Of a DNA stretch of 64,000 nt, positions 1,704 to 61,257 are shown in pieces. The stretch lies in the NCBI GenBank assembly GCA_030390025.1, contig CM059432.1:82710001-82774000 (forward strand). The letters are read 5' to 3'. Numbering within the stretch: the stretch's first letter is position 1; the number at the start of each line of letters is the position of its first letter. Made by a program: the position numbers and the translations under genes. The notes beneath the pieces were generated by a model. That model did no database searches. It was not told the origin of the DNA and was given only the letters and a program-made list of their open reading frames with translations. This DNA comes from Squalus acanthias (lineage: Eukaryota).

Positions 1704-3062
1704 CACTTGGACAATCCTAGTAACTACAGGCTGGTCAGTTTAACAGTGGTGGGTAAAGTTTTAGAAACAATAATCAAGGAAAAAATTAACGGGCACTTGG
1801 AGAGGTTTAAGCTAATTAAGGAGAGCCACCATAGATTTGTAAAAGGCAGATCATGTTTGACTAATCTAACTGAATTTTTTGATGAAGTGACAGGGAGGAT
1901 CGATGAAGGGAATGTAATGGATGTTGTCTACATCGATTTTAGGAAGGCGTTTGATTTAGTACCACATAGAAGACTGGTTAACAAAATTGAGGCTCATGGA
2001 ATAGGTGGGTCAGTGGCAGCTTGGATAAGGAATTGGCTTGAAGACAGAAAATGGCTGGTAAATGGCTGTTTTTCAGACTGGAGGATGGTAGATAGTGGTG
2101 TTCCACAAGGGTCAGTGCTGGGGCCACTGCTTTTTTTGATATATATAAATGACCTGGATATTAGAATAGAATAGAATTTCTAAATTTGCCGCTGACACCA
2201 AACTTGAGGGTGTGGCAAACAGTGAGGATGATACCAATCGACTGCAACAGGACATAGAAAGGCTAGCAGAATGGGTAGACAAGTGACAGATGGAATTTAA
2301 TACAGAGAAGTGTGAGGTGATGCATTTTGGAAGAAGGAACAGGGAGAGGCAATATACATATAATGGCACAGTTTTAAAGAGTGTGCAGGGACGGAGGGAC
2401 CTGGGAGTTAATGTGCATAGGTCCCTGAAGGTGGCAGGACATATTGAGAGAGTGGTTAACAAAGCATATGGGATTTCGGGCTTCATAAATAGAGGTATTG
2501 AGTACAAAAGTAGAGAAGTTATGCTGAATCTTTATAAAGCGCTGGTTAGGCCACAATTGGAGTATTGCATCCAGTTCTGGTCACCACACTTTAGGAACGA
2601 TGTGAGGCCCTTGACAGGGTGCAGATTAGATTTATCAGAATGGTTCCGGGATGGGGGATCTTAGCTACAAGGACAGGTTGGAGAAGCTGGATTTGTTTTC
2701 ATTAGAGCAAAGGAGGTTGAGGTGTACAAGATTATGATGGGTTTGGATAGGCTAGACGGGGAAAGCTGTTCCCACTAGTTGATGGTACAAGGACTAGGGG
2801 ACACAGATTTAAGGTTTTGGGCAAGAGAGGAAAAACCTCTTTACGCAGCGAGTGGTGAGGACCTGGAACTCGCTGCTGACGGAAGTGGTGGAAGCGGACA
2901 CACTCAATGTTTTCAAGAGGAGACTGGATAGGCACTTGAGGGAAATAAACTTGCAGGGCTACGGGGATAGAGCGGGGGAATGGGACTGACTGGATTGCTC
3001 TACAGAGAGTTGGCACGGACTCGATGGGCCAAATGGCCTCCTTTTGTGCGTTATGACTCTAT
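1704..3062 (+). mobile_element. 5'-truncated CR1 LINE, (GACTCTAT)n-tail subfamily; tail completed at 7228-7238
   Basis: ORFs 1707-2174 and 2290-2664 carry NYRx[23 protein letters not shown] and LVRPQLEYC. 3' UTR hairpin followed by TTATGACTCTAT. Confidence 0.92.
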
Positions 3063-3573
3063 GGGGTAAAAATTCAGCTGGTTGCGCCTCCCGTTAGGGC
3101 CTTAAGAGGGCGCTAATGGGGCGCAAAGCCGCTAACGCCCGGGCGCAGTGATGTTTGCGCCACTCGGGAACTTAACTAGACATTGTGCGGCGGCGCTAAA
3201 CTTTACCGCTGCGACCACCTGCGCACGCAGATTGTGACGTCATTCCATGGTGCAACGCCCTTGTGGCGCCCCGGAGCAGAAATTGAGTGGCGCCCCCTGC
3301 CTTACCACCTGGCGCATCCAACGACCGGAAGACTGGAACGCTATCACTCGCTGTGGGGCTGGGGGGGGCGCTATTTAAAGGGGGCCTCTTCCTGTCTTTT
3401 TCTGAGATTGACATTTTTGCACCACTCGTTCTGAGAGAGAGAGAGAGATTCGGAGAGAGAGAAAGAGAGACTTCTGCATTGACTCAACGCTTTGTGAGGT
3501 AGTTTTGCCTACTGATCCTAACTTCGCTAGTACTTTGGTTGCTGTCCTTCATAACTTTGCTTGCCAAGAGATT

Positions 3574-4734
3574 ATGGGGGCTGCACTGATTGGGGGCGTC
3601 GTCCTGCTCCAGCTGAATCGGAGGACACAGAGACGCAGAGAGAGAGTGGCAATGATGGCCAGACGGAGGAGGGCCAACAGGTGTATGTACATGAGAGCTT
3701 ACCCTCCCAGGGTATATCGTGAACAGCTCTCCTACATTCATATGTCTGAGGAGCTGTGTTTGCGAAGGCTGCGATTCAGCAAGGAGGTGGTCACTGAGCT
3801 CTGCCACCTGCTGCAGCCAGATCTGCAGCCTCAACTGAGGTCCAGGACGTCTCTGTCTGTGGCAGTGAAGGTCACAGTGGCTCTCAACTTCTATGCTACT
3901 GGCTCATTTCAAGCTGCTGCTGGGGACCTCGCCAATATCTCCCAGTTCGCGGTGCATTGCTGCATCCGGCAGGTCACAAATGCCCTCTTTAAAAGGAGAC
4001 GAGAGTTCATCTCTTTCCCCATGACCCCAGACAAGCAGCGTGACCGCGCTCTGGGCTTTGCGAGGATAGTGGGCTTCCCCATGGTGCAGGGCGCCATTGA
4101 CTGCACGCATGTGGCTTTGCGTGCTCCACATGAGAATGCCGAGGAATTCCGGAACAGAAAGGGGTTCCATTCCTTGAATGTTCAGTTGGTCTGTGACCAC
4201 AGACAGCTGATACTCGCTGTCAATGCCCACTATCCTGGCAGCTGCCACGATGCTTTTATCCTGCGCCAGACTACTGTGGCAGAACTTTTCGAGGCACCGC
4301 ATCAGCCAGTTGGTTGGCTTCTCGGGGACAAGGGGTATCCATTGAGCACCTGGCTGATGACACCGCTCCGTACGCCCAACACCCCTGCTGAGCTGCGGTA
4401 CAATGAGAGCCATCAAGCTACCAGGAACATCATTGAGCGCACAATCGGCGTGCTGAAGCAACGGTTCCACTGTCTCGACCATTCTGGAGGAGCCCTGCAG
4501 TACTCGCCTGAGCGAGTATCCAACTTCGTAGTTGTGTGCTGCATGTTGCATAACATGGCAATCGTCAGGACCCAGCCAATGCCACCAGGCCTTGGAGCAC
4601 TACCAGAGGAGGAGGAGGAAGAGGAGGAAGAGGACGAGGAGGATGATCATCAGCAGCACCAAGGCGGGAGGGCGGCCCACAATGGTGAAACTGCAAGGGC
4701 CGTCCGTCAACGGCTGATAGCAAGCCGCTTCTAG
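3574..4734 (+). CDS. Harbinger (HARBI1-like) DDE transposase, 386 aa from the first ATG, intact ORF
   Basis: Motifs GAIDCTH, NRKGFHSLNVQLVCD, PGSCHDAFIL, LLGDKGY, RNIIERTIGVLKQRF, CCMLHN and an acidic tail. The ATG at 3574 (MGAA) is matched by MGAL in the decayed copy at 57740. Confidence 0.93.
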   Translation: MGAALIGGVVLLQLNRRTQRRRERVAMMARRRRANRCMYMRAYPPRVYREQLSYIHMSEELCLRRLRFSKEVVTELCHLLQPDLQPQLRSRTSLSVAVKVTVALNFYATGSFQAAAGDLANISQFAVHCCIRQVTNALFKRRREFISFPMTPDKQRDRALGFARIVGFPMVQGAIDCTHVALRAPHENAEEFRNRKGFHSLNVQLVCDHRQLILAVNAHYPGSCHDAFILRQTTVAELFEAPHQPVGWLLGDKGYPLSTWLMTPLRTPNTPAELRYNESHQATRNIIERTIGVLKQRFHCLDHSGGALQYSPERVSNFVVVCCMLHNMAIVRTQPMPPGLGALPEEEEEEEEEDEEDDHQQHQGGRAAHNGETARAVRQRLIASRF

Positions 4735-5045
4735 GGCCCCTGCTGTGGAAATGGCTTCTGCCATTGCTAACAACATCAATGAACCCAGCACGCAACCCCT
4801 AAGCCGGCCAAGGCACCAATAATTCCAAACACCAAACATGTATATTTTGAATACAAAAACTTATTTATTTTACAAACTCTGTGTGTGTCATTTCTCATGA
4901 CAAACTCATAGAAATAAACACAAAAAAACAGTCAATAACATAACTGGTTCTCACAACCTGGAGATAATGTCCAAAACACTAAACAAAAGTTGGACCACGA
5001 ACCTCGGCCTTTAATAAAAAAATGACCAGCATTTTGTCACACCTC

Positions 5046-6866
5046 CTACTTTTTGCCCTTCGAGGGTGATCTCCTTCCCTTGCGCACTTCCCCCCTTCTA
5101 ACCCTACTGCTCCTCCGTAATGGGACCTCAGTGGCTGCAGCAAGGCTGGTGGAAGGCTGCTGATCGTCAGACCCTGACACTGCAGATGCCCCTGAAGGAC
5201 GGCCTCGACCAGTTCTGGGCCTGGAGGGCCCGGCTGCAGACTGCACCAACTCTGCATGGGCGGCAGCAGTCTGTCCTACAGGCGGTGGCAAGTGCAGTGG
5301 AGAAGTGACAGTGTTGGCAGCAGGAATGCTGTCATCGTGAGAGAGGACAGCAACTCCCTGCTCGCCCGACACACTGGCACTCCCACGGGGCAGCACTTCA
5401 GCATCCGGAGCAATCTGCTGGAGCACAGATTGCTGGCCTGCTGCGGCGCGGTGAGAGCCCCGGGGACATGTGAACGAACCATCGAGGTTGGCAGCAGTCA
5501 GTGCTCGCGTGGCCTCAATCTGAGTCTGCATGAGAGCAGTCAGAGATGGGATCACGGCAGCCAGTGACTGAATTGCAGCACTAAGCGTTAGTGTGGCATC
5601 CGCCTGTGCTACAGCGAAGTGCTCCACACTCCTTGCCAGTGACTCAATGCATTCGGGCACCCTTCCCACTGCACCCATGAGCTCAGTGTGCATGCCCACC
5701 ACCTGGGTGTTCATTTCTGCGATCAGCCGCTCCTCCTCTGCGTCCATTGCAGTAGGAGTCTCTGGCATACTCTCCCTCTGGGGAGAAGGCCCCCGTTCTT
5801 CCCTACCCCCATGGCGTTGCTGCAGCCCACTGGGTCCTGGAGCTTCACCCTCATCAGACCCTTCCCCCCTGCTCCCCTCCAGGGAAGGCGTGTTCCCAGT
5901 GTGGGCATGGGCTTCCTCGGGAGAGGGTGGCACTGATGCTCCGGCTTCCTCTTCCTCCTCGGCTGCAGCTTCACTCCCAGTGGCAGCTTCAGGGCCCGTC
6001 TCCTCAGCTGGTGAATCACCATCTGAAAGCAGGGAGGTACAAGAGTGGCTTTAGTGTGAGGACAGGGTGGCAGTAAGGGAGGAATAAGTGCAGCGAGTTA
6101 GCAAGTTGGATTGAAAGTGTCAAAGGCTGGTGTTGTGAGGGACAAGTGGAAGGACAGAGGACAAAAAGGTGATGACCTTACCATTGCTGTCCAGAACGGG
6201 GTCGGCGTCTCCAGTGGCGACGGGACCGATCACCTGGCTTGCCACAATCCTGTGGACGCGCTCCTCAAGATCGCTGAGGGGTTGCAGCTGAGGCCGCCCT
6301 CCACCTGTCCGTTGCTGCTGTCTCCGATTATGCGCCAGCTTGGCCTGCAAGAAAAAGGACAGCATCTGAGTAAATATACAGCCATGGTCTTGCCTGATGT
6401 GCCTCCCATAGGTGAATAGCCCTTACTGTATGCAGCCATTGTCTTGCCTGATGTGCCTCCCATAGGTGAATAGCCCTTACTGTATGCAAAGTGTGGAATG
6501 TGTGTGTGTGTTTCATGAAAGGGCCATAGGTGTTGCATGAGTGTTGTTAATTGGGGTTTTAAGACCCTCTGGCCATAGAGTGAGGTTGAGATGGAGGGAT
6601 GGAGAGGTATTGAGAAAAAGCCACTCACCCTGACGACCCGAGTGAGGTCGTTGAACTTTTTCCGGCATTGTACATGGGTCCTGGGCACCATGCTCCTGCA
6701 GGAGACGCTCTGAGCCACCTCCCTCCACACTCTTCTGTACTCGCGCTGGCAAAGGCCTCCTGCCACTCTCAGGGAAGAGTATAGATCTTCTGCGCTCCAC
6801 CGCGCCAACCAGAGCATCCAAGGCCCGCTCGCTGAAGCGCTGAGCTCGTTCTCTCACCCTCTCCAA
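5046..6866 (-). pseudogene. Harbinger Myb/SANT-like (trihelix) partner gene; exons 6866-6629, 6344-6182, 6022-5046
   Basis: Motif RF..RAL..LV..VERRR..LF...W.EVA......RT..QCRKKFNDL. GT-AG introns in phase 0 and phase 1. Start codon is TTG (ATG in copy B), and exon 1 has a +1 insertion near 6746. Confidence 0.85.
6376..6483. repeat. 54-bp tandem repeat x2 in Myb gene intron 1
   Basis: Unit ATACAGCCATGGTCTTGCCTGATGTGCCTCCCATAGGTGAATAGCCCTTACTGT. Confidence 0.95.
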
Positions 6867-7238
6867 GTCCTTGGCTGCAAAATGTAATCACAGGTCTCTC
6901 CAGGTCGAGATTCAAGGCTGCAATGAGCAGGGTGTGGCTGAGAGCAAGATCGACCCCCCCCGCTTTAAGAACTGGCCGGCGCCAGTGTGTCTGTGTTCCC
7001 TCGCTAACTGGCAGCACCTGCGCTGCGCTCGCGCGCTGAGTTAGCGCCTCACTGCTCGGCCTTTGCGCCTTAAGACAGGTGTGCAGCGCCTGATTTAGCG
7101 CTCCACTCACCTCCCGGGGCGGTAAAAGTGAAGTTTCCAGTCAGTGGCGATAATTAGCGCCAGGCGCTAATATTTGCGTCCAGACGATATTTGCGCCCCA
7201 AACGGGGCGCAACCTAATTTTTCCCCCTATGACTCTAT

Positions 7239-11009: not shown

Positions 11010-11577
11010 CGGGAGAGCAAGAGGAGCGGCCGGAGATAAAGGTGGGCCTGTCTTTTAAGACTTTTAGGGGTAAAAATTCACTTGGTTGCGCCTCCCGTTA
11101 GCGCCTTAAGAGGGCGCTAATGGGGCGTTAAGCCGCTAACGCCCGGGCGCAGCGCTGTTTGCGCCGCTCGAGAACTTAACTTGAGATTGTGCGGCGGCGC
11201 TAAAACTTACCGCTGCGACCACCTGCGCGCGCAGATTGTGACGTCATTCCATGGTGCAACGCCCTTGGGGCGCCCCGGAGCGGAAATTGAGTGGCGCCCC
11301 CTGCCTTACCGCCTGGCGCTTCCAACGACCGGAAGACTGGAACGTTATCAATCGGTGTGGGGCTGGGGGGGGCGCTATTTAAAGGGGGCCTCTTCCTGTC
11401 TTTTTCTGTGGTCGACATTTATGCACCACTCGTTCTGAGAGAGAGAGAGAGATTCGGAGAGAGAGAGAGAGAGACTTCTACATTGACTCAACGCTTTGTG
11501 AGGTAGTTTTGCCTATTCATCCTAACTTTGTTGCTACTTTAGTTGCTGTACCTCATTACTTTTCTGGCAAAGAGAAT

Positions 11578-12738
11578 ATGGGGGCTGCAATGATTGGGGG
11601 CGTCGTCCTGCTCCAGCTGAATCGGAGGATAGTGAGATGCAGACAGAGAGTGGCAATGATGGCCAGACGGAGGAGGGCCATCAGGCGCATGTACAGGAGA
11701 GCTTACCCTCCCAGGGTATATCGTGAACAGCTCTCCTACATCCATATGTCCGAGGAGCTGTGTTTGCGAAGGCTGCGATTCAGCAAGGAGGTGGTCACTG
11801 AGCTCTGCCACCTGCTGCAGCCAGATCTGCAGCCTCAGCTGAGGTCCAGGACGTCTCTGTCGGTGGCAGTGAAGGTCACAGTGGCTTTGAACTTCTACGC
11901 CACTGGCTCATTCCAAGCTGCTGTTGGGGACCTCGCCAATATCTCCCAGTTTGCGGTGCATCGCTGCATCCGGCAGGTCACCAATGCCCTCTTCAGAAGG
12001 AGACGAGACTTCATCTCTTTCCCTATGACCCCAGACAAGCAGCGTGACCGTGCTCTGGGCTTTGCGAGGGTAGCGGGCTTCCCCATGGTGCAGGGCGCCA
12101 TTGACTGCATGCATGTGGCTTTGCGTGCTCCGCGAGAGAATGCAGAGGAATTCAGGAACAGAAAGGGGTTCCATTCCTTGAATGTGCAGTTGGTCTGTGA
12201 CCACAGACAGGTGATACTCGCTGTCAATGCCCACTATCCGGGCAGCTGCCACGATGCTTTCATCCTGCGCCAGACTACTGTGGCAGAACTTTTCGAGGCA
12301 CCGCATCAGCCAGTTGGTTGGCTTCTGGGGGACAAGGGGTACGCATTGAGCACCTGGCTGATGACACCGCTCCGTACGCCAAACACCCCTGCTGAGCTGC
12401 GGTACAATGAAAGCCATCAAGCAACCAGGAACATTATTGAGCGCACAATCGGCGTGCTGAAACAACGGTTCCGCTGTCTGGACCATTCCAGAGGAGCCCT
12501 GCAGTACTCGCCTGAGCAAGTTTCGAACTTCGTAGTCGTGTGCTGCATGTTGCACAACATGGCAATCCTCAGGACCCAGCCAATGCCACCAGGCCTTGTA
12601 GCACCACCAGAGGAGGAGGAGGAAGAGGAGGAACAGGACGAGGACGATGATCATCAGCAGCACCAAGGCGGGAGGGCGGCCCACAATGGTCAAACTGCAA
12701 GGGCCGTCCGTCAACGACTAATAGCAAGCCGCTTCTAG
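11578..12738 (+). CDS. Harbinger DDE transposase, 386 aa, intact ORF
   Basis: GAIDCMH, LLGDKGY and IERTIGVLKQRF; same length as the copy A protein. Confidence 0.93.
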   Translation: MGAAMIGGVVLLQLNRRIVRCRQRVAMMARRRRAIRRMYRRAYPPRVYREQLSYIHMSEELCLRRLRFSKEVVTELCHLLQPDLQPQLRSRTSLSVAVKVTVALNFYATGSFQAAVGDLANISQFAVHRCIRQVTNALFRRRRDFISFPMTPDKQRDRALGFARVAGFPMVQGAIDCMHVALRAPRENAEEFRNRKGFHSLNVQLVCDHRQVILAVNAHYPGSCHDAFILRQTTVAELFEAPHQPVGWLLGDKGYALSTWLMTPLRTPNTPAELRYNESHQATRNIIERTIGVLKQRFRCLDHSRGALQYSPEQVSNFVVVCCMLHNMAILRTQPMPPGLVAPPEEEEEEEEQDEDDDHQQHQGGRAAHNGQTARAVRQRLIASRF

Positions 12739-12928
12739 GGCCCCTGCCATTGCTACAAACACTAATCAACCCAGCACGCAACCCCTAAGCCGGCCAAGGC
12801 ACCAATAATTCCAACCACCAGCCATGTATATTTTGAATACAGAAACTTATTTATTTTACAAACTCTGTGTGTGTCAATTCCTCATGATAAACTCATAGAA
12901 ATAAACACAAAAAAACAGTCAATAACAT

Positions 12929-13209
12929 CCAAAAATGTGTGGGTTAGGTTGATTTGGCTATGATAAATTGACCCTTAGTGTTAGGGGGGATTAAATATGT
13001 GGGGTTATGGGGATAGGATGGGATATGTTAGGGGGAATTAAATACGTGGGGTTACGGGGGTAGGGTGGGATATGTGCACTGTGGGGATTAAAGCAGGGAC
13101 AGGGTACTGGATTTGGATGATCAGCCATGATCGTATTGAATGGCGGAGCAGGCTCGACGGGCTGAATGGCCTACTCCTGCTCCTAGATTCTATGTTTCTA
13201 TGTTTCTAT
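12929..13209 (+). mobile_element. 5'-truncated HE1/V-SINE-like SINE inside Harbinger B
   Basis: Absent from copy A (site near 4941). V-domain-like CCAAAAATGTGTGGGTTAGGTTGATTTGGC...AAATTG, a CR1-type 3' end (ATCAGCCATGATC...GGCCTACTCCTGCTCC) and a (TTCTATGT)n tail. Confidence 0.8.
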
Positions 13210-13313
13210 AACTGGTTCTCACAACCTGGAGATAATGTCCAAAACACTAAACAAAAGTTGGACCATGAACCTCGGCCTTTAATAAAAAAATGACCAGCAT
13301 TTTGGCACACCTC

Positions 13314-15244
13314 CTACTTTTTGCCCTTCGAGGGTGATCTCCTTCCCTTGCGCACTTCCCCCCTTCTAACCCTACTGCTCCTCCGTAATGGGACCTCAGT
13401 GGCTGCAGCAAGGCTGGTGGAAGGCTGCTGCTCGTCAGACCCTGACACTGCAGATGCCCCTGAAGGACGGCCTCGACCACTTCTGGGCCTGGAGGGCCCG
13501 GCTGCAGACTGCACCAACTCTGCATGGGCGGCAGCAGTCTGTCCTACAGGCAGTGGCAAGTGCAGTGGAGAAGTGACAGTGTTGGCAGCAGGAATGCTGT
13601 CATCGTGAGAGAGGACAGCAACTCCCTGCTCGCCCGACACACTGGCACTCCCACGGGGCAGCACTTCAGCATCCGGAGCAATTTGCCGGAGAACAGATTG
13701 CTGGCCTGCTGCGGCGCGGTGATAGCCCCGGGGACATGTGCACGAACCATCGAGGATGGCAGCAGTCAGTGCTCGCGTGGCCTCAATCTGAGTCTGCATG
13801 AGAGCAGTCTCAGATGGGTTCCTGGCAGCCAGTGACTGAATTGCAGCACTAAGCTTTAGTGTGGCATCCGCCTGTGCTACAGCGAAGTGCTCCACACTCC
13901 TTGCCAGTGACTCAATGCATTCGGGCACCCTTCCCACTGCACCCATGAGCTCAGTGTGCATGCCCACCGCCTGGCTGTTCATTTCTGCAATCAGCCGCTC
14001 CTCCTCTGCGTCCATTGCAGTAGGAGTGTCTGGCATACTCTCCCTCTGGGGAGAAGGCTCCCGTTCTTCCCTCCCCGCCCCATGGCGTTGCTGCAGCCCG
14101 CTGGGTCCTGGAGCTTCACCATCATCAGCCCCTTACCCCCTGCTCCCCTCCGGGGAAGGCGTGTTCCCAGTGTGGGCATGGGCTTCCTCGGGAGAGGGTG
14201 GCACTGATGCTCCGGCTTCCTCTTCCTCCTCAGCTGCAGCATCACTCCCAGTGGCAGCTTCAGGGCCCGTCTCCTCAGCTGGTGAATCACCATCTGAAAG
14301 CAGGGAGGTACAAGAGTGGCTTTAGCGTGAGGACAGGGTGGCAGTAAGGGAGGAATAAGTGCAGCGAGTTAGCAAGTTGGATTGAAAGTGTCAAAGGCTG
14401 GTATTGTGAGGGACAAGTGGAAGGACAGACGACAAAAAGGTGATGACCTTACCATTGCTGTCCACAACGGGGTCGGCGTCTCCAGTGGCGACGGGACCGT
14501 TCACCCGGCTTGCCACAATCCTGTGGACGCGCTCCTCCAGATCGCTGAGGGGTTGCAGCTGAAGCCGCCCTCCACCCGTCCGTTGCTGCTGTCTCCGATT
14601 ATGAGCCAGCTTAGCCTGCAAGAAAAAGGACAGCATCTGAGTAAATATACAGCCATGGTCTTGCCTGATGTGCCTCCCATAGGTGAATAGCCCTTACAAT
14701 ATACAGCCATGGTCTTGCCTGATGTGCCTCCCATAGGTGAATAGCCCTTACTGTATACAGCCATGGTCTTGCCTGATGTGCCTCCCATAGGTGAATAGCC
14801 CTTACTGTATACAGCCATGGTCTTGCCTGATGTGCCTCCCATAGGTGAATAGCCCTTACTGTATGCAAAGTGTGGAATGTGTGTGTGTGTTTCATGAAAG
14901 GGCCATAGGTGTTGCATGAGTGTTGTGCATTGGGGTTTTAAGACCCTCTGGCCATAGAGTGAGGTTGAGATGGAGGGATGGAGAGGTATTGAGAAAAAGC
15001 CACTCACCCTGACGACCCGAGTGAGGTCGTTGAACTTTTTGCGGCATTGAACATGGGTCCTGGGCACCATGCTCCTGGAGGAGACGCTCTGAGCCACCTC
15101 CCTCCACACTCTTCTGAACTCGCGTGGCAAAGGCCTCCTGCCACTCTCCGGGAACAGCATGCATCGTCTGCGCTCCACTGCGTCAACCAGAGCATCCAAG
15201 GCCCGCTCGGTGAAGCGATGAGCGCGTTCTCTCACCCTCTCCAT
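13314..15244 (-). pseudogene. Harbinger Myb/SANT-like partner gene; exons 15244-15008, 14615-14453, 14293-13314
   Basis: Intact ATG and Myb/SANT exon (MERVRERAHRFTERAL...QCRKKFNDL). Premature TAA at 14135-14133, where copy A has GAA. Confidence 0.85.
14647..14862. repeat. 54-bp tandem repeat x4 in Myb gene intron 1
   Basis: Same unit as 6376-6483; four near-identical copies. Confidence 0.95.
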
Positions 15245-15654
15245 GCTTGGCAGCAAAATGGATTACAGGTCTCTCCAGGCTGAGATTCAAGGCTGCAATG
15301 AGCAGGGTGTGGCTGGGGAGCAAGTGGCCCCCCCCGCTTTAAGAAGTGTCCGGCGCCATTGTGTCTGTGTTCCCTCGCTAACTGGCAGCAGCTGCGCTGC
15401 GCTCGTGCACTGAGTTAGCGCCTCACTCCTAGGCCTTTGCGCCTTAAGAGAGGTGTGCAGCGCCTAATTTAGCGCTCCACTCACCTCCCGGGGCGGTAAA
15501 AGTGAAGTTTCCTGTCAGTGCCGATAATTAGCGCCAGGCGCTAATATTTGCGTCCGGACGATATTTGCTCCCCAAATGGGGCGCGACCTAATTTCTACCC
15601 CTTAGTCTTAAGTTTATTTCTGTTAAGTTAGTTAATAGTCTATTAAATAAAGGC

Positions 15655-42629: not shown

Positions 42630-42953
42630 CAGTTCCTAATGGGCATTGGCCTACAGCACAAAACTATCTCTAATTCAGCATCAATTGGCAATCTCACCCA
42701 GAGGCCATAGGATGACTGGTGTGAAAAATAGAAAAATGTCACATTGGTCAACAAATGAGATAAGATACAATATAAAGTTAAAAGAAGAGGGTTACACAAA
42801 TGTAAAGAAAAGTGAAATTCCAGCAGGCTGGGGAGCTATAAAAGGGCACAAATAAAGTATTAAGAGCTGCAAAAAAGAGAATATAAAATAAAAATTTGCA
42901 AAGGTAATCAAAGCTAACAGTAAAATGTCACATAAATATATTGTAGAGTCAAA

Positions 42954-43850
42954 GGGGGAGAAATTCAGTATCGCCCCATTTGGGGCGCAATTATCGGCCG
43001 GGCGCAAATATTAGCGCCTGGCGCTAATTATCGCCTCCGACTGCAAACTTGACTTTTATCGCCCCTGGAGGTGATTGGAGCGCTAAATCAGGCGGTACAC
43101 ATCTGTCTTAAGGCGCAAAGGCCGAGGAGCGAGGCGCTAACTCAGAGCGCTGGCGAAGCTCATGTGATGTCAGTCAGCAATGGAACACACACACAATGGC
43201 GCCGGCCAGTTCTTAAAGGGAAGGGTTGATCTTGCTCTCCATCCACATCCTGCTCATTGCAGCCTTGAATCTCGGCCTGGAGAGACCTCTACATCAAATC
43301 TGCAGGAAAGAACAATGGAGAGACCCAGGGAAAGAGCTCAGAGTGCAGCCCCCACAATCTCTTCTAAATCGATACAAGGAAGGGCAAATCAAAATGAACC
43401 TGCAAAGTGCTGCTCAGTACCCAAAACTCCTTCACACAGCGTTGAATCTCTCCAGAAGTCTCTCTCTCTCTCTCTCTCTCAGAATGCGTGGTGCAAAAAT
43501 GTCACCAACAAAAAATGGCAGGAAGCGGTCGCCTTTAAATAGCGCTCCCCCAGTCCCTTCCTGACTGCAAAACGCTCCCCTCAACCTGTCGTTGCTAGCG
43601 GCAGGCGGTAAGGCAGGGGGCGCCACTCAATATCCGCTCCGGGGCGTTGCCGGGGCGTTGCGCACTCGACTGACGTCACGATCTGCCGGCGCAGGAGATC
43701 GTGGCGGTAGTGTTTAGCGCCGCCGCAAAATGTCTAGTTTATTTCGCGAGCGGCGCAAACATCGCCGCGCCCGGGCGCTAGTTGCTTTGTGCCCCATTAG
43801 CGCCCTCTTAAGGCGCTAATGGGAGGCACAACCAACTGAATTTTTCCCCC
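42954..43850 (-). mobile_element. Non-autonomous internal-deletion derivative of the copy A/B Harbinger family
   Basis: TIRs GGGGGAGAAATT / AATTTTTCCCCC. TSD AAA/ATA (one mismatch). Retains about 400 bp of each end, including the Myb start ATGGAGAGACCCAGGGAAAGAGCTCAG at 43315. Confidence 0.9.
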
Positions 43851-45604
43851 ATAGAGTCATAACGACACAGAAGGAGGCCATACAGCCCATCGAGTCCATG
43901 CCGGCTCTCTGTAGAGCAATCCATCAGTCCCATTCCCCCGCTCTATCCTGTAGCCCTGCAAGTTTATTTCCCTCAAGTGCCTATCCAGTCTCCCCTTGAA
44001 AACATTGAGTTTCTCCGCTTCCACCACTTCAGTCGGCAGCGAGCTCCAGGTCCTCACCACTCGCTGCGTAAAAAAGTTTTTCCTCACATCCCCCCTGTAT
44101 CTCTTGCCCAAAACCTTAAATCTGTGTTCCCTAGTCCTTGTACCTTCAACTAGTGGGAACAGCCTTTCCCCGTCTAGCCTATCCAAACCCGTCATAATCT
44201 TGTACACCTCTATCAAATCACCCCTCAACCTCCTTTACTCTAATGAAAACAAATCCAGCTTCTCCAACCTGTCCTTGTAGCTAAGATCCCCCATCCCTGA
44301 AACCATTCTGGTATATCTCCTCTGCACCCTCTGAAGGGCCTTCACATCCTTCCTAAAGTGTGGTGACCAGACCTGGACGCAATACTCCAGTTGTGGCCTA
44401 ACCAGCGCTTTATAAAGATTCAGCATAACTTCTCTACTTTTGTACTCAATACCTCTATTTATGAAACCCAAGATCCCATATGCTTTGTTAACCACTCTCT
44501 CAATATGTCCTGCCACCTTCAGGGACCCATGCACATTAACTCCCAGGTCCTCTGTCCCTGCACACTCTAATTAAGTGTATATTGCCTCTCCCTGTTCCTT
44601 CTGCCAAAATGCATCACCTCACACTTCTCTGTATTAAATTTCATCTGCCACTTGTCTGCCCATTCTGCTAGCCTTTCTATGTCCTGTTGCAGTCGATTGG
44701 TATCATCCTCACTGTTTGCCACACCCCCAAGTTTGGTGTCATCAGCAAATTTAGAAATTCTACTTTTTATTCCAATATCCAGGTCATTTATACATATCAA
44801 AAAAAGCAGTGGCCCCAGCACTGACCCTTGGGGAACACCACTGTCTACCATCCTCCAGTCTGTGAAACAGCCATTTACCACAACTCGCTGTTTTCTGTCC
44901 TTAAGCCAATTCCTTCTCCAAGCTGCCACTGACCCACCTATTCCATGAGCCTCAATTTTGTTAACCAGCCTTATATGTGGTACTTTGTCAAACACCTTCC
45001 TAAAATCCATGTAGACAACATCCATTGCATTCGCTTCATCAATCCTCCCTGTTACTTCATCAAAAAATTCAATTCGATTAGTCAATCAAGATCTGCCTTT
45101 TACAAATCCGTGTTGGCTCTCCTTAATTGGCTTAAACCTCTCCAAGTGCCCATTAATTTTTTCCTTGATTATTGTTTCTAAAACTTTACCCACCACTGAT
45201 GTTAAACTGACCAGCCTGTAGTTACTAGGATTGTCCTTACACACTTTCTTGAACAATGGCGTCACATTTGCCACTTTCCAATCCTCAGGCACCTCCCCCG
45301 CATCTAGGGAAGATTGGAAAATTATGGCAAGCCCTTCCGCTATCTCCTCCCCCAATTCCCTTAGCAACCTGGGATGCAAGCCATCTGCACCAGGCGACTT
45401 GTCCACTCTAAGCATACCCAGCCTTTCTAGTACATCCTCTCTATCAATTTTCACCCCTTCCATTGCTTCTACCTTTTCCACTGCTACCGATATTTTGTCA
45501 GCATCCACCTCCTTAGTAAACACCGATACAAAGTACTCATTGAGTATTCGAGCCTTGCCCTGCGCCTCTAAGCATATATCACCTTCTTTGTCTTTAATAG
45601 GCGC
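43851..45604 (-). mobile_element. 5'-truncated CR1, (GACTCTAT)n-tail subfamily (as 1704-3062); tail completed at 42943-42953
   Basis: ORFs 45086-45523, 44567-45085 and 44235-44534 are nearly identical to the 1707 and 2290 peptides. Confidence 0.92.
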
Positions 45605-52757: not shown

Positions 52758-54269
52758 GGCGCAATATCAGCAGCGTCTGCCCAGTACGGCAGTTGGGAGA
52801 TTTGGACCTCATTAACATTCTTCCAGTGAGCTGCAGGCGTTAAATGGGAGCTCCGCTGCAGTTCACCAGTATCCTGCGGCAGACAATAGGCCAGATGTAG
52901 CACACAGCTGGCCAGCAGGTAAGACCTGTTTCGGGGGGGTGGTGGTGTGCAGTGGACGCCGAGGGGTGGGTGGGCGGAATGAGATCGGGCCGGCGGTGAG
53001 CCGGAAATTTTTTCTGGGGCCTGGAAGAGCACTTCCTGGCCCCACAAAATCTTTAAAATAACAATATATTTACCTTTTTAGAAAGGCCTTCTTTAAGGAC
53101 CACCTGTTATCCTCTCAACACCTGGAGAAAGTGGGACTGGCATGTACCATGCATGCTCCATCCATTTGTCCAAGAAAATTGCAATCAGGGTCCTACAACA
53201 GGCATTGAACCCCGATTTGTATAAACAGCCTTTTGTCTGTTTTGGCAGGTGTCCATTTAAAGGCCTGCCTGAAAATTGATTCAAGTGAGTTAATGGGTGC
53301 ATAAAGTCCCCACCAGATTTTCCTCTGCTGATATCCTGTTTTCCAGATGAGAAACAGATGGCTGGCAGTTAAAAAATTCCCTTCATTGTTTCAATTGTAC
53401 TCATCCTTTGTCCAGCATAACCCTGACCTTAAACCTTACCATATTATGGTCACTGTTGCTAAGGTGATCTCTGACTCTGACCTGCTCTACCATCGCCTGG
53501 ATATTATTTAATATCAGGTCCAATAGCACTGGCTCAAATGGTTTCCTTGACTAATTATTCCGTGTAGCGATCAAATATTGTGTCCAGGATCACATTTTAA
53601 CCCATTATAGATTTTTCAATCTTTGCTGGTAATTTTCAGTCACCCATACTACTGGAACACGCTTCCCTTACTTGATTACAAAGTTCTTAGTCCAATCGCT
53701 CCTCCTGACCTGGTGGCCTATGGTAGACACTCATTGTTAGTTTCCGTCCCCTCATGTCTCTCATCACCATAAAAAAGGTTTCCACCTTATCCACGCCCAG
53801 ACCAAAGAGAGCCACCACCATTATAATCAAATCCTCTTTCATGTAAAAAGTTACACCCCCTCCCAGTTTGTCATTTCTATCTCGCCGAAGTAATCTGTAT
53901 AATTGTGCATTGATCCAACATTTTTGAACCACTTCCTCCAATGGCTCACTGGGGGCTAAATTGGATAGCCCCCGAAAATGGGCGCAGAGATCCCAATGCG
54001 TGATTACCCCATGCCCATTCAGTGTAATGCAGGCATCATGCCAACTTTGTTCTGCCTGCTTATTATAATGGTTGTTGTGTGTAGCCAGCGCTCCCCGCGC
54101 TGTTCATTGGCTGCAAACATCGGCAGAGGGCCCAATATCATTACTTGCTAGCACTACTTAAAGCTAGCCTGCACTGCTTAAAGCTAGCCTGCACCTCTTA
54201 AAGGCCAGCTGCATTGTGGCTGCTGAAGATCCTGAGATCATTCAGAATAGTGCTGTGCTACAAAGAACA

Positions 54270-56139
54270 ATGGCTGACCATGGGAGCAAGCAGGCTCCAA
54301 GGTTTTCCGACACTGCACTGGAGATCTTGGTGGAGGAGGTGGAAAGGAGGAGAGATGTCCTGTATCCGTAGTGGGCCAGGAGGCCCTCCAGAGACATGAT
54401 GAGAAGGCAGTGGGAACAGATGGAGTTTAGCTTTGAGGAGCTGGATGCAGTTCCGCAAGAAGTTCAATGACCTCACATGAGTGGTCAAGGTCAGTGAATG
54501 CAGCTTCAAATGTCATATCCCAGAAACTGCACCACTAGCCTCAGCCACTGCTCAATTCACCTCACCCCCATCACTCACCTACCAGCAATCTCCATCAATC
54601 AGGACTCCGACCTAATATTCACAGCTTCACCTCACCCTCACACTGTTGCAAGCGTCAAAGCCACATCTCACACCTTGCACACACTGTCAGCTATTCAACC
54701 ATGACAGCCACATCACACAAACATATTGCACGACACTCACTGACACACTTCCCTCTCTCTTGCAGGAGAAAGTGGCATACAACCAGAAGCAGCAGGAACT
54801 AACCGGAGGGGGAGAGGTGTGCATGTTCTAACCCCCATGGAGGAGACCGTGTTGGCCATTATTGGAATGGCCATTGCTGAGTCCGTGGCCAGCGGTCATT
54901 GAAAATTATGGTATCCTCATTTCTAATCCTCCTTCTCACATCCCACTTCCCCCTCATCCACAATCTCTTCTGATTTAAAAGCTGCAGATGGTGTAACAAT
55001 GCACTTCTTCTTTCCCCTCTCCCCTCACCACAACCTTACCCTTGTCCCTTTTTCCTTTCAGATACCCAAGAACTGCAACCTGCCCAGGCAGTGGAGGAAG
55101 AGCAAGAAGACAGTGAAGATGAAGACACACCGTCACCCGATTTCACACTCACAACCATCAGCTCAGATACTGGCACTGCACGTATCTTAGAGGATAGCAT
55201 AGAGGCAGGATCTGCTCATGGTGAGACACCAGGCACGATTGCGCTGCAGCCAGGGCAAGGGGCAGGAATAGCACAGGTGCCAGCTTGCCAGAGGGTGAGG
55301 TCGCACACGAGTTTTGCTGCAGAGGACTCAGATGAGCACTTCAATGGGGCGGACTACAGAAGAAGGCTGATGGGTCCACTCACCAAAATGCTTGGGGCAT
55401 TGGAAAGCCTGTCAGAAAGCCTGCGTTCAATGTCACGGAGCATGGAGGAGTCCGGGACCAACTTGGCACAGAGCTTTGCGCCTTGGAACCCATCCTTTCC
55501 AGCATGGAACTGGTGGCCAACTCCAACAACACACTTGTGCACCCAACCATGATGCAGTGTCTGATAACTGATGTCTCAGCTTCCATTGCAGCACAATCAG
55601 CTTCCACCAAAAGTCTGAGTGCTGCAGTGGAGGCTCAGACTGAAGTCATGCAAGGTCAGCTTGCTGTTGTGCAAGCTCAGACTGATGCCACCACGGCTGT
55701 GGATACCAGTGTTCAAAGGGGCTTGCAGTGTGTCACAGCAGTCCAGCAATCTGTCCTCCAACAGAGTACTAGGATTGCTGAGGCGCCTCCCCGGGGGAGT
55801 GGCAGTGGCTCCATGGAGCATGAATCTGCTGGCCTCTCTCAGGATGACAGCATTTGTGCTCCCATCCCTGCCACTCTGCTAGTGCCCTTGCTGTTGCTTG
55901 TCAACCAGCCAGCCCAGACTGCTGCTGTCCATGCCGAGATGGTGCAGTCTGAAGCCAGGTCTTCTAGGCCCAGAGCTACTTGAGGTCATCCTCCAAGGCC
56001 ATCTGCAGTCTCCTCCACTGAAAGTCAGCAGCCTTCCACCAGCCATGCTGCAGCCACTGGGGTAGCACTGCGTAGGAGCACGAGGACAGGCAAAGACACA
56101 CAAAAGACAAACACTAAGGGAATGCATGAGGGTGATTAG
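54270..56139 (+). pseudogene. Myb/SANT-like partner gene of Harbinger C (exons approximately 54270-54489, 54766-54910, 55062-56139)
   Basis: APRFSDTALEILVEEVERRRDVLYP...RKKFNDLT; EKVAYNQKQQELTGGG; LSQDDSI. Contains stops and frameshifts. Confidence 0.8.
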
Positions 56140-56310
56140 TTTATGTTTGTAAGCAATATGGCATGATTTCATTTATAAATTTGGTTTGGAATGTTTATAT
56201 TGTGTTGGCTTTTATTTTTGCATTGTGGCCAAAAGGACGATATGATGATCAGTGACAGAGGGAAAGTAAGGAGTGTTGGACTGTTGGTGGATGGGGAATT
56301 GGGATTCAGG

Positions 56311-57740
56311 TTACTGGTATTGCACTTGAGTTAGTTCTTCATGTACAGCCCGGGCAGAAAGGGGCTCTCTAGGTTGCAGCCTCCTTTCCTCTTCCTCCTT
56401 TTCTGCCTCCTCCTCTTCCTCTTTTTCCTCCTCCTCATGCTCCTGCTCCTCAGCCTGATAGGTGGTGGCAAGGGCAGTTCCCTCATGATGGCAAGGTTGA
56501 GACCCACTCAGCCGAGTACTACAGGGCTCTTCCAGCGCGGTCCTAGCAGCGGAATCATTGCTTCAGCATGCCAATTGTCTGCTCTATCACATTTCTTGGT
56601 GCAGCATGGCTCTTATTGTATGCATGCTGCACATGTGTGTGTGGGTTGCGAACTGGTGTCATGAGCCATGTCGTCAATGGATAGCCCTTGTCACCCACTA
56701 GCGACCCTTTGGTTTGCCGTGGTGGCTGAAATACAGCTGGCACAGCCAACTGCCGCAGAATGAAGGCATCATGACTGCTGCCAGGATACCGGGCATTGAC
56801 CTGCATGATGCGCTGCGTATGGTCACACACCAGCTGCATGTTGAGGGAGTGGAATCCTTTTCAGTTCTGGGACATGACAGAATTGACATGCGGCTCCCAC
56901 AAAGCAATGTATGTGGAGTCAATGACATCCTGCACCATGGAGATGCCTGCAATCCTGGAAAATCCTCATGCTCCCTCCACCTGCTTCTCTCCGGCAAGAG
57001 GGAATGAAATGAAGTTATCTCTCTTTGAATATAGCACCTCAGTTACCTCCCTTATGCAACAGTGAATGGTAACCTGTGAGATGTTGCTAATATCTCCAGC
57101 ACCAGCCTGGAAGGAGCCAGATGCTTAAAAGTTCATAGCCACGGTCACCTTCACAGATACTGGCAATGCAGTCCTTGCTCTTCTCTGAGGTTGCAGTTGT
57201 GGCTGCAGCAGTTGGCAGATTTCAGCCCTTGCCACCATCTATCAGGCGAGAAGCTGAGGAGCAGGAACACGAGGAGGAGGAGGAGGAGGAAGAGCAGGAG
57301 GCAGAAGAGGAGGAATAGGAAGAGGAGGAAGAAGAGGAAGAGGAAGGGAGGCTGCAACCTAGACAGCTCCTTTCTGCCTGGGCTGTGGGTGAACAACTAA
57401 CTCAAATGTGATACCAGTAACCTGAACCCCAATTCCCCATTCACCAACAGTCTCACACTCCTTACCTTCCCTCTGTCACTGACTATCACATTGTCCTCTT
57501 CAACATAATGCAAAAATAAAAGACCTCCTTAGTGAAGCACAGACTTCTCAAACATTGGTCGTCGCTGAGGTTCAGGTAGGAGAATTGCTCCCTGAACACC
57601 CTGGGCAGATATGGCCACCTGCTGAGAGCCCTTCTCCCCCTCCTCCTCCTTCCTCTAGCAGCTTGACCTGCTCTGTGTGGCCTCTGGCCATTCTCCCAGT
57701 CAAGCTCTATTCCAAGAGGAAGGCCTACTAGTGCACCCAT
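56311..57740 (-). pseudogene. Harbinger C transposase, frameshifted
   Basis: [35 protein letters not shown] and [10 protein letters not shown]. Confidence 0.88.
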
Positions 57741-58296
57741 GTCTGGGAGTAACTAGTTTGTGTAGAAGCCTTGAAGTCAACAAAAAGTACTTCAGCACCT
57801 GCCATTTACACTTTTGAAACTTGAAACAACTATGGAAAGCATCAAAAACATGTAGAATTGTAGCAACAGCCAGAAGAAATCAACCAGCAACTAACCTGTA
57901 AGTAGTTGATGATCCCTTTAAGTAGCGCTGCTGGGGGTGGGGGGGGGGGGGGGGGGGGGGCGGGGAGGTGTCCTTCCTGCTGCTTAATACGTGTTCAGCT
58001 GTGCAAGCTTAAGAGACGGTGTTGGCTGGAGCATCGAGCTCCAAAATGGCAGCGCTGGCATTAAATTAGAGTTGCACGCTGATTGATGTCATGATCTGCC
58101 TGCTCTGCATACTTCCGGCAGACGTTAAGTGCACACGCTCGAACCCCTTTACCAAGATGGTGCCTGGCGCGCTTTGCATCAGAAGTGTTCGCGCACGCGT
58201 GCCACGGACACCATTTTGGATCCCTAACGGCACTCGTAGCGCCCAAAAAACAAGTGCTACGATGCCCAATTTCTCACTCACTGAGTTTATCCAATG

Positions 58297-61257
58297 AGAA
58301 GCTAAGCTAACGGTAGCATTGCAGCAGAGAATAAGGTCAAAGCAGGGAATAATGGTAAAAAAATTAAATTAAAGGCTCTTTATCTGAATGCATGAGGTAT
58401 TCGTAACAAGATAGACGAACTAGTGGCACAAGTAGAGATAAATGGGCTTGATCTAATAGCCATTACAGAGATGTGGTTGCAAGGTGGCCAAGGTTGGGAA
58501 CTAAATGTTCCAAGGTACATGGCATTTCGAAAAGACAGGCAGAATGGAAAAGGAGGGGGAGTAGCCCTGATAATAAAGGATGACATAAGGACAGTAGCGA
58601 GAAAGGATCTCGGCTCGGTAGATCAGGAAGTGGAATCAGTGTGGGTGGAGATAAGGAATAACAAGGGGCAGAAAACACTGGTAGGAGTAGTATATAGGCC
58701 CCCTAACAGTAGCTATACTGTTGGACAAAACATTAATCAAGTAATAGTAGGAGCTTGCAACAAAGGTAATGCAATAATCTTGGGGGACTTTAATCTTCAT
58801 ATAGACTGGACAAATCAAATTGGCAAAGGTAGTCTGGAGGATGAGTTCATGGAATGCATTTGCGACAGTTTCCTAGAACAATATGTCATGGAACCAACCA
58901 GGGAACAGCTTGAGGCTATTTTAGATCTTGTATTGTGTAATGAGACAGGGTTAATTAGCAATCTCATAGTAAAGGATCCTCTGGGGCAGAGTGATCATAA
59001 TATGATAGAATTTCACCTTAATTTTGAGAGTGACTTGCCTAAGTCCGAAACTAGAGTCTTAAACTTAAATAAAGCCAATTACATAGGTATGAGGGGTGAG
59101 TTGGCTAAGGTAGATTGGAAAAATAGATGAAAAGGTATGGCGGTAGATAAGCAGTGGTTAGCATTTAAAGATATATTTCATAATTCTCAACAAAAATACA
59201 TTCCATTGAGAAACAAAAACAAGTGATCCAACCGTGGCTAACTAAAGAAGTTAAGGATAGCATTAGATTGAAAGAAGAAGCTTATAATGTTGCAAAGAAC
59301 AATAGTAAGCCTAAGGATTGGGAGAGTTTCAGAAACCAGCAAAGGTTGACCAAAAAATTGGGAAAAAAAGGGGGAAAATAGTATACAAGAAAAAACTAGC
59401 AAGAAATATAAAAGCAGATTGTAAGAGCTTCTACAAGTATGTAAAAAGGAAGAGAGTAGCAAAAGTAAACTTTGGTCCCTTAGAGGCTGAGACAGGAGAA
59501 ATTATTATGGAGAATAAGGAAATGGCAGAAACGTTAAACAAATATTTTGTATCTGTCTTCACAGTAGAAGACACAAAAAACATACCAAAAATGGTGGGGA
59601 ACCAAGGGTCTAATGAAGGTGAGGAACTTAACGTAATTAATATAAGTAGAGAAAAAGTACTAGAGAAACTAATGGGATTAAAAGCTGACAAATCCCTTGG
59701 ACCTGATGGCCTACATCCTAGGGTTCTAAAAGAGGTGGCTGAAGAGATAGTGGATGCATTGGTTTTGATCTTCCAAAATTCCCTAGATTCTAGAATGGTC
59801 CCAGCGGATTGGAAGGTCGCAAATGTAACACCGCTATTCAAGAAAGGAGGGAGAGAAAAAACAGGGAACTGCAGACCAGTTAGCCTGACATCAGTCGTCA
59901 GGAAAATGCTGGAAACCATTGTTAAGGAAGTGGTATCAGGGCACTTAGAAAATCATAACTTGATTAGGCAGAGTCAACATGGTTTTATGAAAGGGAAATC
60001 ATGTTTCACAAATTTATTAGAGTTTTTTGAGGATGTAACTAGCAAGGTAGATAAAGGGGAACCAGTGGATGTAGTATATTTGGATTTCCAAAAGGCATTC
60101 GATAAGGTGCCACACAAAAGGTTATTACACAAGATTAGGGCTCAAGGGGTTGGGGGTAATAGAGTAGTATGGATAGAGGATTGGTTAACGGACAGAAAAC
60201 AGACAGTAGGGATAGACAGATCTTTTTCAGGTTGGCAGACACTAACTAGTGGGGTGCCGCAAGGATCAGTGTTGAGGTCTCAGCTATTTACAATCTATAT
60301 TAATGACCTAGATGAAGGGACTGAATGTAATGTATCCAAGTTTGCTGATGATACAAAGCTAGGTGGGACAGTAGGCTGTGAGGAGAACACAAAGAGTCTG
60401 CAAAGGGATATAGATAGACTAAGTGAGTGGGCAGTAAGGTGGCAGATGGAGTATAATGTAGTGAAATGTGAGGTTATTCACTTTGGTAGGAAGAATAGAA
60501 AAACAGAATCTTTTTTAAATGGTGAGAAACTTTCAAATGTTTGTTTTCAGAGAGATTTGGGTGTCCTCGTGCAAGAAACACAGAAAGCTAGCGTGCAGGT
60601 ACAGCAAGCAATAAGGAAGGCAAATGGCATGTTGGCCTTTAATGCAAGGGGGTTGGAGTATAAGAGTAAGGAAATCCTGCTACAATTGTACAGGGCCTTG
60701 GTGAGACAACACCTGGAGTACTGTGCACAGTTTTGGTCTCCTTATCTAAGGAAGGATATACTTGCCTTGGAGGCGGTGCAACGAAGGTTCACTAGATTGA
60801 TTCCTGGGATGAGAGATTGTGTAGAATGGATCTATACTCTCTGGAGTTTAGAAGAATGAGAGGTAATCTCATTGAAACATACAAGATTCTGAAGGGGATT
60901 GACAGGGTAGATGCTGAGAGGTTGTTTCCCCTGGCTGGGGTGTCTAGAACTAGGGGGCATAGTCTCAGGATAAGGGCTAGGCCATTTAAGACTGAGATGA
61001 GGAGGAATTTCTTCACTCAGAGGGTTGTGAATCTTTGGAATTTTCTGCCCCAAAGGGCTGTGGATGCTGAGTCTTTGAGTATATTCAAGGCTGAGATAGA
61101 TAGATAGATTTTTGGACTCTAGGGGAATCAAGGGATATGGAGATCAAGCAGGAAAGTGGAGTTGAGGTTGATGATCAGCCATGATCTTATTGAATGGCGG
61201 AGCAGGCTCGAGGGGCCATATGGCCTACTCCTGCTCTTATTTCTTATGTTCTTATGT
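58297..61257 (+). mobile_element. CR1 LINE with nearly complete ORF2
   Basis: Endonuclease at 58423-59130 (ITEMW, GDFN, SDH); RT at 59318-60859 (FADDTKLG); (TTCTTATG)n tail. Confidence 0.93.

Follow-up and report, generated by a model that had tools for sequence, protein, structure and literature searches.

We analyzed a 64,000-nucleotide window of the Squalus acanthias assembly (GCA_030390025.1, contig CM059432.1, positions 82,710,001 to 82,774,000; coordinates below are those of the window) in which Harbinger DNA transposons interrupt the 3' tails of two long interspersed elements (LINEs), which we take to be of the CR1 clade from a preliminary description of this DNA and from the C-terminus of the second open reading frame (ORF2) and the tail. 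Harbingers most probably enter tails of the repeat unit GACTCTAT one by one after CR1 insertion, since two tail units nearly spell what is likely the ~19-bp palindromic target of the transposase. This reading is carried by the fixed register, the presence of both orientations and of several families, the dependence on a second tail unit, a motif obtained from non-tail sites and an equally hot site outside the tail. The tail pattern is real, genome-wide and striking in degree, and is best explained by a known Harbinger preference meeting a motif-matching multicopy repeat. The two loci, A and C, the latter holding a miniature inverted-repeat transposable element (MITE), comprise the following features:

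1709..3062, plus strand: CR1 copy A, 5'-truncated, with the reverse transcriptase region, the 3' end and the first tail unit GTTATGACTCTAT; RVT_1 at E=4e-21 on 1710-2171; 94.2% identical to copy C
3060..3062, plus strand: left copy of copy A's target site duplication (TSD, 3 bp), TAT; right copy at 7228-7230
3063..7227, plus strand: Harbinger copy A, 4165 bp, with imperfect terminal inverted repeats (TIRs) GGGG(T/G)AAAAATT
7231..7238, plus strand: remaining tail of CR1 A, GACTCTAT, which forms the right half of the target; an L2-like host resumes beyond
42943..42953, minus strand: right TSD of copy C (TTT, one mismatch) and tail remnant GACTCTAC
42954..43850, minus strand: copy C, a non-autonomous Harbinger (MITE) of 897 bp, of an older subfamily than A
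43851..45600, minus strand: CR1 copy C, 5'-truncated (5' limit approximate), ending in GTTATGACTCTAT; RVT_1 at E=1e-22 on 44570-45085

At copy A, the CR1 reads ...GTGCGTTATGACTC-TAT and is followed by the Harbinger start GGGGTAAAAATT at 3063; the Harbinger end AATTTTTCCCCC at 7227 is followed by TAT-GACTCTAT and then by the L2-like host with its MHADDTQLY motif. On the minus strand, copy C reads CR1 ...GTGTCGTTATGACTC-TAT, then the MITE start GGGGGAAAAATT at 43850, and at the far side the MITE end AATTTCTCCCCC at 42954, then TTT-GACTCTAC; the host before it is an old antisense CR1. Both junction pairs are as the preliminary description gave them, and the window's six other listed CR1 3' ends (ATTCTATG, TTCTATGT and TTCTTATG types and one short tail) are all empty, in line with its remark on other tail types. 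The outer flanks of A and C gave no BLAST match to each other at E<1, and the two CR1s differ in 5' truncation point and in host element, in agreement with its claim of two independent insertions. That the two loci derive from one segmental duplication would fit their location within a single 45-kb stretch in inverted arrangement, but this origin is refuted by the flank comparison and is virtually certain to be wrong: the elements themselves differ (4165 vs 897 bp, with ends 82-88% identical), as do the truncation points, and hundreds of such junctions lie across many chromosomes. The CR1 bodies share 94.2% identity over 1339 aligned columns, compared to 81.9% (left, 390) and 87.5% (right, 338) for the Harbinger ends. 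The preliminary description had noted these more diverged ends and had taken them to favor targeting of the tail over joint mobilization; its conclusion was right, although the difference reflects two different Harbinger subfamilies. The identical orientation that it reported holds in the window.

When the whole assembly (3.7 Gb) was searched by exact patterns, we found 28,957 exact copies of the left end of this Harbinger family. The GACTCTAT tail is joined to the left end at 315 junctions and to the right end at 360. Under random insertion, the expected number of tail-left-end junctions is about 0.03, and the enrichment that was to be checked is therefore present at about ten-thousand-fold. 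The left-first share is 46.7% (p=0.09, the two patterns being slightly unequal in stringency); the shared orientation does not extend beyond the window and, with both orientations near equal genome-wide, is a one-in-two coincidence. The 22-letter word of the tail end occurs in 6,844 copies, the tail followed by GG in 2,107 and the empty tail with a second GACTC in 1,023. Extrapolated to the whole assembly, ~58% of intact GACTCTAT tails are filled.

Among the first 100 tails listed on contig C1, 29 hold a GG-ended TIR element, always directly after the first TAT, so that the insertion register is as uniform as had been proposed; two further candidates (L264 and L278) were counted as empty. By eye and BLAST, we assigned 11 of these elements to the family of copy A (2 forward, 9 reverse), 7 to relatives with similar ends and 11 to a GGGCTGGATTTT type, of which one tail-inserted element carries a Harbinger transposase 62% identical to that of copy A. 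The far ends could be resolved in 27 of the 29, giving lengths between 139 bp and ~4.5 kb. The second unit, which lies past the element in filled tails, begins with GACTC in 19/27 of them, compared to 9/71 empty tails (Fisher p=7e-8), and the median site score on the target matrix described below was 11.2 in the first 12 resolved filled tails vs 5.3 in empty ones. Taken together, these results indicate that filling needs the second repeat unit, that is, the right half of the palindromic site. Short tails with an identical upstream context are mostly empty. Since Harbinger excision is reported as usually perfect (PMC2836001), some of the empty tails may be vacated sites. As to whether filled tails lie on older CR1 copies, with short or interrupted copies dropped by the alignment filter, CR1 divergence over the last 130 bp was 3.9% in filled (21) and 3.6% in empty copies (58; p=0.27), and in an upstream window 4.8% (9) and 3.4% (36; p=0.04), respectively. 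We also observed multi-unit tails (L026, L053, L100, L127, L130, L156, L391, L401 and L409) in which consecutive TAT units hold two different Harbinger-type elements, spaced by one GACTC or GATTC.

The identical register everywhere and the tail remnant after the element would also be obtained if a Harbinger had inserted once into the tail of a master CR1 and the resulting CR1-Harbinger composite had then retrotransposed as a unit, by read-through and target-primed reverse transcription from the remaining tail, the second option of the preliminary description. We identified 56 filled tails with a whole MITE and aligned the 40 in which the CR1 part was 290 bp or longer. The MITEs in these 40 loci belong to two subfamilies, each present in both orientations. 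The test of LINE and Harbinger congruence that had been suggested gave Mantel p values of 0.19-0.78 within a MITE subfamily, and no congruence was found inside subfamily and orientation. Over all 40 loci the test gave p=0.087 uncorrected and p=0.037 after age correction, a weak overall signal in the direction of a composite. The closest MITE pair (0.6% apart) lies in opposite orientations in CR1 hosts 6.6% apart, and the hosts of the eight closest pairs (<=1.1%) are 4.4-8.1% apart. We found 7 elements from the tail-distal end, and each is full length and has both TIRs; past the far end lies a CR1 3' end in 6 cases and another tail-inserted element in 1. A 5' truncation inside the Harbinger was seen in none of these 7. 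We therefore found neither a fixed orientation with one cargo lineage nor, at the 40 loci, a congruent ancestry of LINE and cargo. The near-equal orientations, the many families of very different length at the site, MITEs younger than their CR1 hosts, the Mantel tests and the absence of truncated cargo rule out composite retrotransposition as the main source, and we consider it very improbable in any form.

We then turned from the tails to unselected insertions, taking the first 100 left ends listed on contig C1. Ninety of these were paired with a right end in reach, of which 77 showed an exact 3-bp TSD and 13 did not; the most frequent TSDs among the 77 were ATA (10), TAT (9), TTA (8) and TTT (7). 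Only 5 of the 100 insertions lie in a tail of the GACTCTAT subfamily (2 forward, 3 reverse), and 12 of 73 deduplicated TSD-confirmed sites lie in some CR1-type tail. After dropping 4 duplicate-flank sites and excluding 12 tail-like sites, we trained a matrix on the 61 non-tail sites. The resulting motif, over positions -9..+9, is symmetric, with its strongest preferences for A at -5, C at -2 and A at -7 and their mirrors, and can be summarized as TWARASWC-TWW-GWSTYTWA. On this matrix the GACTCTAT tail reaches 11.2 bits, more than any other site of CR1 copy C and near the 90th percentile among held-out true sites. Behind it in copy C come 1615/1613, 1142, 80, 1502 and 1171; insertions were seen independently at positions 1612-1615, 1502 and 1171, all in the top seven of the matrix. 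The other tail types score lower, with 8.6-8.8 bits for GATTCTAT, 1.4-5.6 for TTTCTATG and about 0 for TTCTTATG, and the advantage of GACTCTAT over the GATTCTAT tail is +2.4 bits (95% range 1.3-3.6). These low scores agree with the empty other tails in the window and with the GATTCTAT tails inspected, of which 0/30 were filled, only about 3 of the 30 having a full second unit; no filled tail was found among the TTTCTATG tails seen. GATTC-type tails with insertions do occur (L156, L166, L168 and L397), which tempers the 0/30 result. The same core motif was recovered from 16 TSD-confirmed sites of 30 GGGCTGGATTTT elements. Zebrafish Harbinger3_DR is described as highly specialized for the palindrome AAACACCWGGTCTTT (PMC3016246); this consensus reaches 13.5 bits on our matrix, whose maximum is 16.8, above every 15-mer of the window. 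The preference therefore occurs in a distant fish element too, and its origin need not lie in targeting of the GACTCTAT tail. Separately, elements L115 (G000:C2:13562861-13565894), L037, L057, L184, L196 and L217 have flanks from two different target sites with mismatched TSDs, and at L115 the 5' part of the CR1 is inverted beyond the MITE; such elements would be expected if two Harbingers within a CR1 had undergone recombination or alternative transposition.

A non-tail comparator was provided by the word TAAGACAC-AAA-GCCTTCAG in ORF2 of a different CR1, which recurred among the unselected sites and was left out of training. It scores 11.6 bits, and the tail minus comparator difference is -0.3 bits (95% bootstrap -2.7 to +2.1). 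None of the first 30 comparator copies listed was filled (0/30), which suggested a large tail bonus; this was mostly removed by the whole-genome count, in which 832/7,062 copies (~12%) are followed by GG. Thirty GG-followed comparators were inspected, and 28 hold an element of this family or a close relative (forward in 16, reverse in 12), 1 a GGGCTGGATTTT type and 1 a point change. By divergence from the column majority, the comparator CR1 (2.0-2.7%) is younger than both the GACTCTAT CR1 (3.6-3.9%) and the older of the MITE subfamilies (3.0%), and older than the young MITE subfamily (1.3%). The same values place the GACTCTAT CR1 before both MITE subfamilies, which fits the CR1-first order. 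Left-first elements of the young subfamily alone fill ~5.8% of the intact tails at risk and ~4.1% of the comparator sites, rates that derive from hand counts (31/100 tail rows, 10/30 comparator rows) and are uncertain by about a third. By these similar rates, the tail is about as hot as an equal-scoring site elsewhere. The comparator CR1 has a second target ~30 bp away, TAACACTC-TTA-GTCCTTTT, and both are filled in L217/L218 (G000:C1:23882770-23888301).

The first option of the preliminary description, in which a DNA transposon targets the LINE tail as a self-renewing safe harbor, is thus supported as to independent, sequence-directed insertion and unsupported as to targeting of the tail itself, given the 5/100 unselected copies in the GACTCTAT tail, the motif from non-tail sites and the filled ORF2 site. 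Its tail-specific part could still hold in the form of a real bonus added to the motif, with CR1 3' ends drawing Harbingers through tandem repeat shape, an upstream stem region or young-LINE chromatin. Several observations, besides the age-corrected Mantel value, weigh against a motif-only account of one-by-one insertion, and some of them favor such a bonus. By hand arithmetic, the matrix predicts ~0.9% left-first junctions in intact tails vs 9% seen, and ~1.2% vs 5.9% at the comparator, so that the excess over prediction is about two times larger for the tail (~10-fold vs ~5-fold). With all families counted, ~58% of intact tails are filled vs 12% of comparators, a gap for which age accounts only by inference. 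The sites behind the matrix number 59-61 and all come from the first 24 Mb of a single chromosome; flank decay, the small training set and pooled subfamilies would all flatten an additive matrix. Finally, an internal site of the CR1 is filled in 11/86 tail-filled and 2/69 tail-empty copies (p=0.04), co-filling above expectation, mostly by different families, that sequence alone does not predict and that suggests that certain loci are more accessible or older. The 12/73 sites in CR1-type tails point the same way. Against the bonus stand the similar young-subfamily rates, the near-zero score gap to the comparator, the mostly empty short tails with the same upstream context, the empty GATTCTAT and TTTCTATG tails and the 95/100 unselected insertions outside the GACTCTAT tail. 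A modest tail bonus may exist on top of the motif, and we judge a bonus of the safe-harbor kind to be unlikely.

The internal site is a second hot spot ~155 bp upstream of the tail (CR1 copy C 1612-1615, window ~44006-44009, minus strand), filled in L014, L027, L103, L115, L116, L133, L150, L223, L240, L242, L268, L427 and L440. Local hopping was rejected as the main cause of double-filled CR1s, the tail and internal elements often being of different families.

Under one-by-one insertion, the CR1 would insert first, and Harbingers of several families would later land singly at the first TAT in either orientation. The transposase likely reads the ~19-bp palindrome, which two adjacent tail units, TATGACTC-TAT-GACTCTAT, nearly spell. 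We infer that, as has been reported for Harbinger3_DR, the transposase and its Myb partner would recognize the motif directly, and that tail and motif probably match through a coincidence of the tail sequence of one CR1 lineage, not an adaptation. Harbinger target choice could in turn act as a selective force on LINE tails, with lineages whose tails are poor targets outlasting a CR1 lineage with a motif-like tail: with ~60% of intact 3' ends interrupted, master copies would lose the repeats used for reverse transcription. The GACTCTAT subfamily does predate the Harbinger bursts (3.0%, 1.3%), and the younger CR1 examined ends in the low-scoring TTTCTATG, with no filled tail seen. However, this is a single age comparison, the younger CR1 belongs to a separate lineage that has an ORF2 hot spot of its own, and a master would be lost to ordinary mutation several times faster, so that we regard such selection as improbable.

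The assignment of copy A to PIF/Harbinger is supported by a transposase of the DDE_Tnp_4 type, a Myb/SANT-like second gene recognized by a partial-domain match, TIRs (A, B and C all have imperfect GGGGNARAAATT ends), the 3-bp TSD and the extended palindromic target. The further features are:

3505..4734, plus strand: copy A transposase, open frame of 409 amino acids from TTG (first ATG at 3574); DDE_Tnp_4 (PF13359), E=6.6e-40
5046..6866, minus strand: copy A Myb/SANT-like second gene, split across exons and frames, with inferred exon limits
11067..15601, plus strand: Harbinger copy B, same family as A and 92% identical to it, outside any tail

The second gene matched Myb_DNA-bind_4 (E=6e-5) and Myb_DNA-bind_5 (E=3e-4) as a partial domain under the curated Pfam cut-offs, because it is split over frames. 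Transposition in this superfamily needs both proteins. A structure search found no matching solved structure for the transposase. Copy B, overlooked in the preliminary description and found by self-comparison of the window, lies at a non-tail target with TSD TTA (TAAGACTT-TTA-GTCTTAAG), scoring 10.9 bits. Between its two genes (12929-13207) is a short, younger insertion that ends as a TTTCTATG-type CR1 3' end, and this tail type was therefore active after B inserted. A 54-bp unit in an intron of the Myb gene is present twice in copy A (6378-6481) and four times in copy B (14646-14867). An older, decayed Harbinger of another family lies on the minus strand at 54040-58300, with a transposase at 68% DNA identity to that of A and a rearranged middle. 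Elsewhere, tandem arrays of 35-bp period are built of terminal sequence of the GGGCTGGATTTT family of Harbingers (G000:C1:119566379-119567599 and C1:129304908-129305113), a minisatellite born of a TIR.

Overall, these results extend the known target preference of vertebrate Harbingers to another lineage and show the degree to which a motif-matching multicopy repeat can be saturated (~58% of intact tails). Repeat finders will mis-assemble such junctions into false CR1-Harbinger composite consensus models, and nested filling offers a relative clock for transposable element subfamilies. If a tail bonus or tail selection were true, it would be a new interaction, of a DNA transposon with a LINE replication signal. 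We found no account of Harbinger insertion in CR1 tails in the literature searched, Repbase, Dfam, subscription papers and supplements, which may describe these families, being outside that search. Harbingers are reported absent in elephant shark, other cartilaginous fish being untested there (PMC9179366).

Four known systems can be compared with the present one. Like CR1-clade LINEs, the host has a non-LTR reverse transcriptase (the RVT_1 domain of copies A and C), 5' truncation and short octamer repeats after its 3' end; it differs from the other CR1 subfamilies of this genome in its tail unit, GACTCTAT and not GATTCTAT or TTTCTATG. Dada transposons are strictly specific for small nuclear RNA and transfer RNA genes (Kojima and Jurka, PMC3706591) and likewise occupy one position of a multicopy target. 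In contrast, 95/100 unselected copies here lie outside the tail, only 315/28,957 exact left ends are in it, and the specificity is that of a degenerate motif, not of a strict safe harbor. Also comparable are the hot spots of human repeats, in which transposable elements insert into others at single host positions bearing the preferred motif of the inserter (Levy, Schwartz and Ast, PMC2836564). Insertions pile up at a motif-bearing host position here too, but those hot spots involve Alu, hAT, ERV1 and MaLR elements, whereas here a Harbinger fills a CR1 tail, to a far higher level and with no clear orientation bias. There is also a likeness to Harbinger3_DR/Harbinger3N_DR of zebrafish (Sinzelle et al. 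2008, as cited in PMC3016246 and PMC2836001), with a transposase plus a Myb-like gene, a 3-bp TSD and an extended palindromic target, the extended preference being reported to cover 9 bp in plant and 15 bp in vertebrate Harbingers (PMC2836001). Compared to Harbinger3_DR, the TSD is here mostly TWW/WWA instead of CWG, weak information reaches 19 bp, and the element is present in tens of thousands of copies, with motif-matching multicopy repeats visibly saturated.

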